From assembly GCA_964016885.1 (NCBI GenBank), contig OZ024740.1, positions 420,360,001 to 420,424,000 on the forward strand: a stretch of 64,000 nt of DNA, read 5' to 3'. A program made the translations under genes and the position numbers. How positions within the stretch are numbered: position 1 is the stretch's first letter; each line of letters starts with the position of its first letter. Under the pieces are notes generated by a model that searched no databases, was not told where the DNA came from, and worked only from the letters and a program-made list of their open reading frames with translations. This DNA is from Eledone cirrhosa. Lineage: Eukaryota. Below, one piece after another: positions 8,105 to 64,000 of this stretch.

Positions 8105-8337
8105 ATATATATAAATTATATATATATATATATATATATATATATATATATATATATATATATATATAAATATATATATATTTATATATATATATATATA
8201 TATATTTATATATATATATATTTATATATATATATATATATATTTATATATATATATATATATATATATATATATATATATATATATATTTATATATATA
8301 TATATATATATATTTATATATATATATATATATATAT
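8105..8337. repeat. (TA)n microsatellite, left boundary of the retroelement cluster
   Basis: Direct; many more TA tracts separate the elements to the window end. Confidence 0.97.
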
Positions 8338-8468
8338 GCAAAAGTTCTATTTAAAATTGTTGGGATACAACAAGTAAATATTTTATAACTGATATAAAGC
8401 ACTCGACAAGTTTTTGGAGTAGATATACGATATTAAATAAATGGAAACTAAATTTATAAAACCATATT

Positions 8469-8533
8469 TATTTCATTATACATATTTCAGGGATACCAAA
8501 TTAAAATATGGTATGCCTTCATCAGACAAAATA
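8469..8533 (-). ncRNA. Type I hammerhead ribozyme (family C)
   Basis: tattttgt CTGATGA aggcatacca..tggtatccct GAAA t atgt ATA atgaaata; stems I and II pair, minimal stem III. Confidence 0.8.
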
Positions 8534-9932
8534 CAATATATAAACAGTTTTATAAATAATTTTGACGTACCCTATTAGATGCAACCATTATTTTTGGAAG
8601 CTGTCTGGATAGTGAGATGTTTATAATTATTTTATTAGTTATAGTGTTAAGCACAGTTAGAAGACGGAGAGAAAGAAAAAACGGAGAGAGAGAAGGAGAG
8701 AGAGAAAAAGAAAACCTGGAGAAATACCGGAGAGAGAGAGGAATGTATGCAGAAAAGAAAGATATAAATAGATAGGAGGAAATGAAAAAGAAAGAAAAAA
8801 GGAAGAAAAAGCAACAGAGAGATAATAATTCATCATACAGATAGAGAAACTCAAGAGAGAGGAGGATATAGTGACAACTTTACGTCATGTCATATTAAGT
8901 TGAGTTAACAATTCATATGAAATGAATAATAAAAATGTAAATATCAATATTCATGAATGGGACATAAATATATAATATGAGAAAATAACATTGTTCAATA
9001 ATGACCATATGTATAGTTTAAAACCTTGAGGTCAATATACCAAAATCTGAGTTAAAACCTTCAAAAGATACCCTATTTATAAAAATACGGATACACATAT
9101 GTATATATATATACACGCATATGTACGTCCTGAAAAAAGAGAAATTATGTCTACTCCAGTCAATAATATAGACACACAAATGATTTCACTTGATCACTTC
9201 TATACATTTCTTGTGTTATAAAAATTTCACAGTATATATACATAAAAATACGATTAATATTCATGTCCTCATATATATGATTACCGTTCATGTATTTAAT
9301 ATTATGCATATCTGCAACACACATCAACATATATACATACAACCATACATACACACACATATGTATAAATAAATATCTGCGTGAGTTTTCCAGCATCGTT
9401 ATGCATATATACAGACACATATACGAACACATAAATAAACCCCATAAACCTTTTATATGCATGTTAATACACATATATGGCCTTTGTATAGAGATAATCA
9501 AATATCAATATATTAATATAGAAATATCAAAGCATTAAATATCTTTAAAACACTATAGAGTATCTCAAGTTAAAATAATATGTTTTATATATTTATTATA
9601 GAAATCTATCCTACCTATATCTCAAACAAGATATTGCAAGGGTAGACATATGAAAGTTATTAGAAGCTATCAGAGTAAAAAAACAAATAAAAAAATAAAA
9701 ATAATTTAAAAGATTTAGAAGACCTAGTGATTCTACGGATGCCCTTATATTTAGTATAGAAATTTATCTTACGTAAATTTTATTTAATACATTGGGAGCA
9801 TATACATTTTAGAGAGTAGTTTATTATATCCTTGTTTATATTTAGGAAGAAAGTTTAAAAAGAAAAAGGTGAAGGAATCTAATGATTTATTGTCAGGTTT
9901 CATATATTAACTAAATTTCTTAATTAATTATA

Positions 9933-10259
9933 CTATATTTTAAATTTATATTTATATTTAAACGTTGAGTTCAATCTATGTCTGCAGCAACTGAATAAAT
10001 TGCTCCTTAAATTAAGGGAATTTTTGGACTTTAATATAAACAATATTTCTTCTACACAAAGATCACAACTCTCTGAAGAGGAATTAAAAGGAGTACCTTT
10101 TGAGACAATATTCCAAATCATCGAATATTTAACATTATCTCGTTTAAGGTGCCAGAGTAGGCTAGATAGCGAAGTTGAAGATTTTTTGTTTGGATCTGTG
10201 AAAGAATTCTTATGATTATTGAAGCGAAGTTTAAATCGCGATGATCACGTCTGACCTAT
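9933..10259 (-). pseudogene. GIY-YIG endonuclease C-terminal fragment of a Naiad-type PLE
   Basis: ORF 9933..10121 plus upstream in-frame IGQT*SSRFKLRF. Confidence 0.85.
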
Positions 10260-10830
10260 CGCGATTCACATACGACCTACCATACATCTTACTTATTTAG
10301 CTCCCTCCGGTAGAGCTTAACCTTCACTGAAAAACACACCGCCCTGGGGTGGCTTTTCAATACACTGACAGTATGCTGACAAAGGACCATCTTCCGTTAT
10401 CTCTTAAGAATATACCCATACCACCAAGGGGTACTTATGAAAAGCAACTTATAACCAGCGTTAACTCGTTTGTAAGGAGAATAAGATGGCGTACATTTCA
10501 CTTCGATAGGCGCCGTAACGCCCCACTAGAGAGTCCATCGAATAATAAGTATGAATTTAGGACATTTAGGAGCCCGTCCCATAACCCTCTACCCCGGCAA
10601 CTAATATAAAAGAGCCCCCTTAGAATATAGACCCCAACTATACAAGCGGAGTTGCTGATGTATACCACAATTTCAAACTGCTAGCCTTGAGTGATACGTT
10701 GATGTAAACAATGATCTTACAATCACATGTTATATGCCTTGATAAGTCCCCCCATGTGGTCGGACGAAACGGCTGTCGGCAATAAACTTGTTATAATGTC
10801 ATAATAGTTCCTTTGTTCTTTTTCACTAAT
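10260..10830 (+). mobile_element. Internally deleted Naiad-type PLE derivative (ORF N-terminus plus hammerhead-bearing 3' end)
   Basis: ATG at 10373: LSLKNIPIP...FVRRIRWRTFHFDR matches the N-terminus of the 814-aa ORF; stop at 10609; hammerhead; then (TA)n. Confidence 0.8.
10730..10785 (+). ncRNA. Type I hammerhead ribozyme, U3-A8 core variant
   Basis: ttatatgcc TTGATAA gtcc..ggac GAAAC ggct GTC ggcaataa; predicted cut after 10777. Confidence 0.75.
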
Positions 10831-11324
10831 ATATAACTATATATATATAAATATATATATATATATATATATATAAATATATATATATATATATATAAAT
10901 ATATATATAAATATATATATATATATATATAAATATATATATAAATATATATATATATATATATATATATATATAAATATATATATAAATATATATATAT
11001 ATATATAAATATATATATATATATATATATAAATATATATATATATATATATATAAATATATATATATATATATATAAATATATATAAATATATATATAA
11101 ATATATATATAAATATATATATAAATATATATATAAATATATATATAAATATATATATAAATATATATATAAATATATATATAAATATATATATATATAT
11201 AAATATATATATATATATAAATATATATATATATATATATATATAAATATATATATATATATATATATATAAATATATATATATATATATATATATATAA
11301 ATATATATATATATATATATACAT

Positions 11325-60952: not shown

Positions 60953-61482
60953 AAAATATTAAAAAAATAATGAATAAAACAATGAAACAGTTCCTTATAT
61001 TAAACAAAAAAAGTTCATTATTTAACGATCGTTTCTAGGACATATATGTGTTAGAATTGGCATGCATATTCAACAGATCTATGTACAAAATTATACAAAC
61101 TATCAAATATAATATACATACCAACACATACATATGCCGTCTTCTGAAGACGGCATATGTATGTGTTGGTATGTATATTATATTTGATAGTTTGTATAAT
61201 TTTGTATAATTTTGTATATAGATCTGTTGAATATGCATGCCAATTCTAACACATATATGTCCTAGAAACGATCGTTAAATAATGAACTTTTTTTGTTTAA
61301 TATAAGGAACTGTTTCATTGTTTTATTCATTATTTTTTTAACATTTTATCTTGACTCTGTATTCCGTTTATCTTTCACCGAAAGTGATTTTTGAATGCAT
61401 CTCTTCTTTCCATGATATCCGGATTACATTGAGTTCTTCATACGGATTGGACACTACCGTAAACTTTTGGTAGATTTATCTA
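60953..61482 (+). mobile_element. Fold-back terminus of PLE family A/B: arms of about 190 bp around T61145 plus 140-nt tail
   Basis: ...gccgtcttc T gaagacggc...; right side runs to ttggtagatttatcta and then (TA)n. Confidence 0.88.
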
Positions 61483-61940
61483 TATAAATATATATATATA
61501 TTTATATATATATATATATATTTATATATATTAATATATATATATATATATAAATATATATATATATATATATAAATATATATATATATATATATAAATA
61601 TATATATATTAATATATATATATATTAATATATATATATATATATAAATATATATATATATATATAAATATATATATATTAATATATATATATATTAATA
61701 TATATATATATATATTAATATATATATTTATATATATATATATATTAATATATATATATATATATTAATATATATATATATATATTAATATATATATATA
61801 TATATTAATATATATATATATATATATATTATATATATATATATATATTAATATATATATATATATATAAATATATTAATATATATATATATATATATAT
61901 ATATATTAATATATATATATATATTAATATATATATTAAT

Positions 61941-62586
61941 ATCATCATCATCATCATCATCAACGTTTAACGTCCGTGTTCCACGCTTGCATAGGTTTGG
62001 ACGGGGGTAGTCCCACTTGAGGCAAGAGTGATTGTCTTGCTCGCATAGGACTGTCTGGCAGGTTTTCTACAGTTGGATGCCCTTCCTAACACCAACCACA
62101 TTTACAGTGTGGGTCTGGGAGGTTTTTACCGTGCTGCCTACACGGCCACATTACAGCGTGGACTGTGTGTTTTTTTGTCGTGACACCTACACGATCTCAT
62201 TTGTTTCGGCCTGGATGGCGCGGCACCAACATAACTTTACATAGAACGGGATGGTGTGGATGGGGTGGGGGTGGTGGTGGGACGGGGGTGTATTTTGTTA
62301 GAGATGCCTACTGGCAAGGCGGGTCTTCTCTGTTACTGAGTACCGCCAAAGGTCTCGGTCCAGTGACATTGTCTTGGAGAGGTGTAAGTGTGTGAGGTCG
62401 GAGTTTATCAGCTCGTCCCAGGTTTTTCTAGGTCTGCCTATTCCGTGGCTACCGTCTATCTTTATTGCCCTGCACTTTGTTATACAGCTATCGACTTTCA
62501 TGTCCATACCAACGTAGCCTTCTCTCGAGTAAACAACATCTGATCCCTCTTATCTCTAATTTTTTCCTTAGTTCGTTTATGCTTTA
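61941..62586 (-). mobile_element. Short RTE LINE 3' fragment with small deletions
   Basis: (CAT)n, 3' UTR and the last ~90 codons; stop-codon region deleted at about 62314. Confidence 0.93.
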
Positions 62587-63023
62587 ATATATATATATAT
62601 ATATATATTAATATATATATATATATATATATTAATATATATATATATATATATATATTTATATATATATTTATATATATATATATATTTATATATATAT
62701 TTATATATATATATATATATTTATATATATATATATATATATATTAATATATATATACATTTATATATATATATTAATATATATATATATTTATATATAT
62801 ATATTAATATATATATATATATATTTACATATATATATATATATATTAATATATATATATATATATTAATATATATATATATATATTAATATATATATAT
62901 ATATATTAATATATATATATATATATTAATATATATATATATATATTAATATATATTTATATATATATATATATATTTATATATATATATATATTTATAT
63001 ATATATATATATATATATTAATA

Positions 63024-63292
63024 TATACGATATTAAACAAATGGAAACTATATTTATAAAACCATATTTATTTCATTATACATATTTCAGGGATACCATA
63101 TTAAAAATATGGCATGCCTTTGTCAGATAAAATACAATATATAAACAGTTTTATAAATAATTTTGACGTACTATAAATATAAGCGACCATTAAGATAGGA
63201 GGCTGGCTTGGTAGTGAAGTGTTTATTATTTAGTTATAGTGTTAAGCACAGTTAGAAAAAAAGACGGAGAAAAAGAAGAAATGGATGTAAAT
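63024..63292 (-). mobile_element. Tail-less 3' fragment of PLE family C with a mutated hammerhead (63069-63134, core CTGACAA)
   Basis: Homologous to 8423-8680. Confidence 0.82.
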
Positions 63293-64000
63293 ATTAATAT
63301 ATATATATATATATATATATATATATATATATTAATATATATATATATATATATATATATTAATATATATATATATATATATTAATATATATATATATAT
63401 ATATATATATTAATATATATATATATATATATATTAATATATATATATATATATATTAATATATATATATATATATATATATATTAATATATATATATAT
63501 ATATATATATATTAATATATATATATATATATATATTAATATATATATTAATATATATATATTTATATATATATATATATATATTAATATATATATATAT
63601 ATATATTAATATATATATATTTATATATATATTTATATATATATATTAATATATATATATATATATTAATATATATATATATTAATATATATATATTTAT
63701 ATATATATATTAACATATATATATATATATTAATATATATATATTTATATATATATTAATATATATATATTTATATATATATATATATTAATACATATAT
63801 ATATATATATTAATATTTATATATATATTAATATATATATATATATATTAATACATATATATATATATATATTAATATATATATATATTAATATATATAT
63901 ATATATATATATATATAGTAATAATAATAAAACATTGCCAGAGAACGTCTCGATGCACCACCTAAGAGAACATTAGTCTACGACCTCTTTTATACCATAA

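Follow-up and report, generated by a model that had tools for sequence, protein, structure and literature searches.

Penelope-like elements, RTE LINEs and two candidate passenger retrozymes nested in a (TA)n locus of Eledone cirrhosa

RESULTS

A nest of hammerhead-bearing elements in (TA)n

Positions 8105 to 64000 of a 64,000-nt stretch of the Eledone cirrhosa genome (contig OZ024740.1; the whole stretch is called the window, and coordinates are positions within it) are very probably a nest of Hydra-clade and Neptune/Nematis-type Penelope-like elements (PLEs), RTE-type long interspersed nuclear elements (LINEs) plus two non-coding retrozymes in (TA)n, the retrozymes having most likely been copied in trans by PLEs. 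By sequence, most hammerheads in the region are motifs of the pseudo-long terminal repeats (pLTRs) of autonomous PLEs. A first-pass annotation had read the region as an ecosystem of autonomous PLEs and several ribozyme parasites; its TA-targeting PLEs hold and two non-coding retrozyme families are real, whereas four short families that it took as non-coding are PLE ends. As it had claimed, the non-microsatellite blocks are edged by (TA)n from 8103 onward.

The hammerhead descriptor used three stems in the type I arrangement and permitted a short palindromic stem III, a long stem II and U3-A8 cores, and its null was the same score on 40 block-wise dinucleotide shuffles; an earlier, stricter descriptor overlooked most motifs. 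In total, 17 intact type I hammerheads occur in the window, compared with a shuffle mean of 0.45, and both of the forms that the first-pass annotation had wanted such a scan to allow were recovered, with U3-A8 cores at 10739, 11494 and 11578 and stem II inserts of 105-115 nt in six copies. The core and three stems are present, and in each family unrelated stem sequences still pair. Together with an eighteenth motif (core 12226, CCGAAGA) and broken or half motifs at 53352, ~15290, ~42470 and the inversion centre near 61145, there are about 20 motifs in nine families, which agrees with the original count. No hammerhead appears among the best 150 of 318 Rfam rows for the window.

Six of the nine families are pLTRs of autonomous PLEs (four Hydra-clade and two Neptune/Nematis-type), two are non-coding retrozymes, and one has no parent found. 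The expectation of a hammerhead in almost every non-RTE block is correct for most, but 39897-41216, 41417-41723, 47180-48815 and 49039-49377 have none; three of these four are pieces of elements truncated or split by later insertions. Moreover, the blocks are not independent colonists, as had been supposed, because 15865-39835 is one tandem array whose 'blocks' are internal microsatellite pieces. Of the analysed span, about 53% is Hydra-1 (43% being the 24-kb Hydra-1A array) and about 24% is RTE LINE pieces, with about 4% in the two non-coding families.

Hydra-clade elements and their arrays

The Hydra-1A array has units of 6917, 6907 and 6908 nt, with 1-9 substitutions between units and varying microsatellite lengths, and contains three open reading frames (ORFs) at 22488-20068, 29395-26975 and 36303-33883, a microsatellite-rich 3′ untranslated region (UTR) of about 4 kb and four hammerheads with a 115-nt stem II. 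The single 806-aa ORF, open in all three, encodes a reverse transcriptase (RT) and, at the C-terminus, a GIY-YIG endonuclease with YRDD and VY..YIG motifs; it has 102 relatives at E<1e-60, and a Pfam search recognised no domain in it. RWR (RWK-type), DKT, a CxCx5C linker, CxxC and CxH all occur in Hydra-1 and Hydra-2, while the linker and endonuclease motifs occur in Hydra-3, and RWR and DKT in Hydra-4 (its endonuclease part was not recovered). The endonuclease lacks CCHH, as the CxxC pair is absent between VY and YIG/YVG in Hydra-1, -2 and -3; both the pLTR hammerhead and (TA)n insertion are found. The unit lengths (6.9, 5.3 and 5.2 kb) exceed the described tendency of less than 3 kb, which is itself not a diagnostic trait. 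This set of motifs comprises Hydra-clade traits, and the array ORF is, as judged by them, a Hydra-clade PLE. Between its RT and endonuclease lies a low-complexity insert rich in Asn, Lys and Thr (20750-21050, minus strand), which resembles the N-rich inserts reported for Adineta Penelopes; Hydra-2 has an unrelated insert at the same position.

Three shorter blocks belong to further Hydra families. In particular, 10237-10837 is an internally deleted copy of the second family, whose 5.2-5.3-kb units were read from the flanks of genomic copies; 8338-10236 is the 3′ end of the third, continuous with Hydra endonuclease and RT at 7 other loci; and 53266-53734 is the pLTR of the fourth, with an ORF downstream at another locus. 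A 2.1-kb 'giant retrozyme' (family 8) was considered and rejected, being the Hydra-3 3′ end.

Further, there are other full-length Hydra-1 arrays at C1 183.74 Mb (at least 4 units), C6 49.53 Mb (at least 4 units) and C4 272.33 Mb (3+1 units, two-armed over 22 kb), with mostly open ORFs. Across these and the window's array, 12 of 13 full-length ORFs are open, with 0-6 ORF differences within an array and 8-24 between arrays. Such near-identical units likely reflect copying from one multimeric or circular RNA. A comparison for editing bias gave no A>G excess, with too few sites.

The Hydra-1B 3′ UTR (15048-15507 and 42228-42686) contains internal repeats of about 235 nt that end in a degenerate hammerhead half, CTGAGGT, and look like a duplicated pLTR front. 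The 263 nt at 41461-41723 directly abut a Hydra-1 tail piece and are delimited by TA; they have no match among the genomic loci compared and are possibly captured host sequence.

Neptune/Nematis-type elements

For 57100-58188 (Nept-A) and the palindrome at 11322-11682 (Nept-B), ORFs were found upstream at other loci. Nept-A has a Pfam GIY-YIG hit, with a CX2-5CxxC linker and CCHH in the C-terminal GIY-YIG, and the same linker and CCHH were read from the ORF of a genomic Nept-B copy. These motifs place both as Neptune/Nematis-type, a grouping that leaves Neptune and Nematis together.

A genome query with a 144-nt piece of the palindrome returned nothing, and one with all 361 nt returned 1017 candidates, at least 40 of which share one inversion centre at 98-100% identity. 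Compared to 31 parent-linked arms, the palindrome arms have 1-5 substitutions and no diagnostic site outside a homopolymer edge; being indistinct from them, the palindrome is a stub and not its own subfamily. A self-copying new element was accordingly rejected, the palindrome having a long parent whose ORF encodes GIY-YIG. The fixed inversion centre of Nept-B stubs recurs without subfamily markers.

Two non-coding retrozymes

RZ496 (unit about 496 nt) and RZ522 (522 nt) consist of non-coding monomers in tandem that each carry a type I hammerhead, and fit the sequence definition of non-LTR retrozymes. A first look gave 2326 genomic candidates for RZ496, with arrays of 14 and 11 monomers, and 2159 for RZ522, with dimers and partial trimers. 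Their longest ATG ORFs are 72 and 27 aa, and their circular-fold z-scores are -9.4 and -3.6, respectively. No ORF-bearing parent was found in 30 RZ496 and 20 RZ522 loci, drawn from the best 40 of more than 2000 candidates. A hammerhead array with a 310-nt period, another retrozyme family, lies beside a Hydra-3 end at C2 6.82 Mb (positions 75-1315 of the fetched stretch).

Fixed insertion ends, mixed arms and self-supplied targets

In eight families, copies end at either of two set distances beyond the ribozyme cut: Hydra-1 at +64/+197-201, Hydra-2 at +55/+165, Hydra-3 at about +53/+141, Hydra-4 at +55/+149, RZ522 at +61/+179, RZ496 at +280/+340, Nept-B at +79/+143 and Nept-A at +166/+226. The stretch between the two sites is the PLE tail; it measures 118 nt in RZ522 (Hydra-length) and 58-60 nt in RZ496, like the Neptune-type elements. 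By hand count, two-armed loci have one arm ending at each site in 9/11 (RZ522), 7/8 (Hydra-3) and 27/29 (Nept-B, 20 of them picked by a mixed query) cases; the remaining ones end elsewhere, and none has the same site twice. In read-through copies, each end site overlaps about 2-7 TA-like bases, and very young copies (98-100% identical) already have TA next to both ends, at constant base positions.

In 7 of 8 Hydra end sites a 4-bp stem begins no more than 12 nt away, as it does at RZ522 site 1, which has a compensatory pair; other positions have such a stem in 2.8% of cases. The stem is absent from RZ496 and from the two Neptune sites that could be checked; the descriptor was drawn from the same sequences, so this association is only a lead. 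There is also a resemblance between RZ522 site 2 and Hydra-3 site 1 (z about 5).

Microsatellites occur inside both Hydra-1 and RZ496, and an internal tract of this kind is where two later insertions landed. The Hydra-1B 3′ UTR is uninterrupted over its 100-280-nt microsatellite at 20 of 29 other loci. In the window, by contrast, a 4.2-kb RTE splits one copy at that point and the 24-kb Hydra-1A array splits a second, so that the targets came from the elements themselves.

A Nept-A arm and an RZ496 arm are fused at 58188 with no TA between them, the former stopping at its far site and the latter at its near site; of 446 5′ ends, no other shows a junction of this type. The same geometry recurs at 10236, where a Hydra-3 arm is joined head-to-head to Hydra-2 without TA. 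Chimeric arms as a general feature were rejected: there is 1 among 79 head-to-head junctions and 1 among the 446 5′ ends, both in the window.

Genome-wide load and TA association

Forty 10-kb control stretches at fixed round positions, a small sample not proportional to chromosome size, contain 47 hammerheads per 400 kb, and their shuffles none. The bootstrap range of 0.70-1.75 per 10 kb extrapolates, for a genome of 3.0 Gb, to about 210,000-520,000 motifs, with an estimate of about 350,000 (about 117 per Mb). Published counts are 126,247 in the axolotl (about 28 Gb), over 6,000 in a coral and about 5,000 in a mussel; the load here is far above these, on descriptors that differ between studies. 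The controls also hold many hammerhead families absent from the window, with stem II up to 115 nt.

The genome-wide search of the short blocks with reading of their flanks, which the first-pass annotation had proposed, found the TA association throughout the genome. Of the 47 control hammerheads, 43 are followed by (TA)5 within 250 nt, compared to 3117 of 15520 control positions (20%), so the association is genome-wide. The window's density of 30 per 100 kb is about 2.6-fold that of the controls and is reached by 3% of resampled 60-kb control sets. Overall, the locus is an ordinary-to-dense sample of its genome and not special.

DISCUSSION

A proposed route of insertion

These patterns are consistent with a mechanism in which the GIY-YIG domain of a PLE ribonucleoprotein (RNP) would cut (TA)n on both strands, and reverse transcription would be primed by each DNA end at one or other of two sites inside the RNA, probably aided by a few bases of TA-like pairing. 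The two cDNAs would then be joined at their truncated ends. Retrozymes likely borrow the PLE RNP, and multimeric or circular RNA would likely be the template of tandem arrays. Because new targets would be brought in or duplicated with every insertion, the tract would grow as a sink.

The clues to partners point in two directions. RZ522, with a Hydra start hairpin and a Hydra-length tail, may use Hydra enzymes, and RZ496, with a Neptune-length tail and once chimeric with Nept-A, may use Neptune-type ones. A broader proposal is possible but doubtful: that this hyper-carrier genome of about 350,000 motifs is a self-seeding system, in which elements ship their own (TA)n, single events driven by Hydra enzymes write 20-30-kb multimers of a ribozyme-cut RNA of 6.9 kb, and the start signals of each retrozyme imitate those of one PLE clade.

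Several observations weigh against the proposed copying by PLEs. Between the retrozyme monomers and the compared pLTRs there is no clear homology (best z 2.8-3.8, with AT-rich sequence), and no one PLE is thereby singled out as the mobiliser. RTE ends lie in TA in 13 of 19 cases and in 2 of 5 at control loci, which is a bias and not a strict rule; since RTE also lands in TA, TA flanks alone are no proof of PLE action. The TA-like overlap at the end sites stands without a computed chance level, and the Hydra arrays could have expanded after insertion. Self-cleavage, expression and circular RNA are predictions, in its minimum-energy fold the Hydra-1A motif has part of the core paired differently, and 8 of 9 Xenopus dimers reportedly failed to cleave in one study. 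In addition, Poseidon starts in vitro at sites not homologous to the cut DNA, while the start sites here overlap TA-like target bases, and its ribozyme is dispensable in vitro (Frangieh et al. 2024, PMC11167929).

Alternative explanations

Insertion might occur anywhere, with survival in TA-rich gene deserts, TA flanks growing later from AT-rich ends, and arrays being satellites of unequal exchange. The AT-rich element ends and the differing microsatellite lengths of array units are compatible with this, and post-insertion amplification has been proposed for retrozyme arrays in the literature available. However, the youngest copies already have TA at fixed base positions on both sides, arrays stop at tail sites and can be two-armed at a 22-kb scale, and published Hydra families share the TA preference; the absence of targeting is therefore unlikely.

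Slightly less likely still, the locus could be special, with most of its short hammerhead blocks being distinct non-coding ribozyme parasites. Its nine unrelated families in 56 kb, its high density and its two non-coding families fit that account. In contrast, copies of the four short families at other loci lead into PLE ORFs, few substitutions separate the palindrome arms from those of ORF-linked parents, and other TA tracts hold the same mix; as read from the ORF-linked copies, the account appears already largely refuted.

Least likely of all is movement of the retrozymes by the RTE LINE in the manner of a SINE (short interspersed nuclear element), for although RTE is young, abundant and TA-biased here, retrozyme copies lack its (ATG)n tail and have two-site ends and inverted arms of the PLE type, and RTE-RTE pairs make up 1 of 79 head-to-head junctions.

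Relation to known systems

Craig et al. (2021, PMC8557442) describe hammerheads and (TA)n insertion for the Hydra clade of PLEs with a C-terminal endonuclease (EN+) and list Hydra-1_Obim (2507 bp) in Octopus bimaculoides. The elements here share the clade's RW[K/R], DKT, CxCx5C linker, CxxC/CxH, lack of CCHH, pLTR hammerhead and (TA)n insertion. They differ in units of 5.2-6.9 kb (against 'generally <3 kb') and tails of 88-135 nt (against 30-40 bp), as well as in their long microsatellite-bearing 3′ UTRs, 105-115-nt stem II and arrays of 3.5 to at least 4 full-length units. With Neptune/Nematis PLEs, according to the same source, they share the CX2-5CxxC linker, a cysteine pair inside GIY-YIG, the pLTR hammerhead and a microsatellite bias; Nept-B differs in a 3′ UTR of about 1.5 kb and many stubs with an identical centre.

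Metazoan non-LTR retrozymes likewise have tandem non-coding monomers with one type I hammerhead each, low GC, a self-paired predicted circle and co-occurrence with PLEs. The monomers here, at about 500 nt, compare with 170-400 nt (Cervera and de la Pena 2020, PMC7229834) and 51-972 nt (Li et al. 2026, 10.64898/2026.07.22.740005), and they differ in having PLE-type two-site ends, inverted arms and no detectable pLTR homology, and in being known from DNA alone. Poseidon_Ac shares the cutting and extension of both strands and the two internal start sites that define the tail, but it shows no strand difference in start site in vitro, whereas the arms here are mixed (PMC11167929). A tail on one of two inverted pLTRs was published by Arkhipova et al. 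(2013, PMC3846280). Minimal PLE hammerheads resemble those here in that helix III is short and palindromic, helix II has an additional base at its foot, the U3-A8 core variant occurs and opposite-strand pairs lie 100-700 bp apart; the 81-115-nt stem II and family-wide CCGANGA core do not appear in the available text (Cervera and de la Pena 2014, PMC4209133).

Hydra TA targeting with hammerheads, the one-sided tail and the link between retrozymes and PLEs are thus already published. A literature search, covering sources other than Repbase, Dfam, subscription papers and preprint supplements, found nothing on cephalopod hammerhead load, no full-length PLE arrays from circular RNA and no PLE-retrozyme chimeras. 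Nor did it turn up these families, Hydra units of such length, the estimated load or the clues to partners; the ingredients are of known kinds. The papers cited here leave open what moves animal retrozymes and how the tails and inverted arms of PLEs form. In this genome, Hydra elements that are young and have open ORFs occur alongside a Neptune-type element and two candidate passengers, with start sites known to the base, which together make named enzyme-RNA pairs testable in vitro; its value is as a ready test system, not as a new class.

FEATURES OF THE WINDOW

Table 1. Elements and fragments in the analysed part of the window, in order of position.
Feature	Position	Strand	Remarks
Hydra-3 PLE, 5′-truncated	8338..10236	-	Endonuclease end, ~2-kb 3′ UTR; hammerhead core 8525, cut 8477; stops at far tail site
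Hydra-2 PLE, internally deleted	10237..10837	+	Junction of ORF start and 3′ pLTR at 10590/10591; hammerhead with U3-A8 core at 10739
Nept-B two-armed stub, 361 nt, Neptune/Nematis-type	11322..11682	.	U3-A8 hammerheads on both strands (11494-, 11578+)
Ninth hammerhead family	11891..12286	-	CCGANGA core, 81-nt stem II, core 12226
RTE-type LINE fragment	12286..14793	-	No hammerhead
Hydra-1B 3′ UTR end	14876..15763	-	Hammerhead 15061; resumes at 39897-41216 beyond inserted array
Hydra-1A tandem array	15865..39835	-	3.47 units of ~6.9 kb, three ORFs, four hammerheads
Hydra-1B 5′ part, internally deleted	39897..41216	-	Inverted tail at 41109-41216
Hydra-1 tail piece (44 nt) and 263 nt unmatched	41417..41723	.	
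Hydra-1B 3′ UTR end	41932..42943	-	Hammerhead 42241; resumes at 47180-48815 beyond RTE
RTE-type LINE, near full-length	42963..47117	+	Apurinic/apyrimidinic endonuclease, RT bearing a PHD-like insert, tail of (ATG)n; lies in Hydra-1B internal microsatellite
Hydra-1B 5′-truncated ORF end and first 3′ UTR block	47180..48815	-	
SINE-like repeat	49039..49377	-	No hammerhead
RZ496 retrozyme dimer	49381..50416	+	517-nt period here, internal (TA)n; hammerheads 49602, 50119
RTE-type LINE, 5′-truncated	50794..52993	+	Other pieces 53896-53956, 54861-56853, 58853-60651, 61937-62586
Hydra-4 pLTR two-armed stub	53266..53734	.	Hammerhead 53527+, degenerate copy 53352-
RZ522 retrozyme monomer	54201..54732	-	Hammerhead 54327
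Nept-A PLE, Neptune/Nematis-type, 5′-truncated	57100..58188	-	GIY-YIG domain, pLTR, hammerhead 57360
RZ496 copy	58188..58750	+	Hammerhead 58470; head-to-head with Nept-A arm, no TA target between
Hydra-1 pLTR two-armed stub	60937..61487	.	Inverted through hammerhead core
Hydra-3-like pLTR stub	63019..63296	-	Hammerhead 63126

The ninth family, with C at position 4 of its CCGANGA core, is kept in several genomic copies and has two TA-flanked end sites. The RT ORF of the near full-length RTE (45034-46608) contains a cysteine-rich insert resembling a PHD finger (Pfam PF00628). The head of the SINE-like repeat at 49039-49377 matches a tRNA-like copy at 5384-5552 and its tail resembles the RTE 3′ end; this tRNA-headed repeat has 111 matches among the genomic loci compared. 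Upstream of the analysed region, a satellite at 149-2367 consists of 76 copies of a 29-nt unit with 94% matches.

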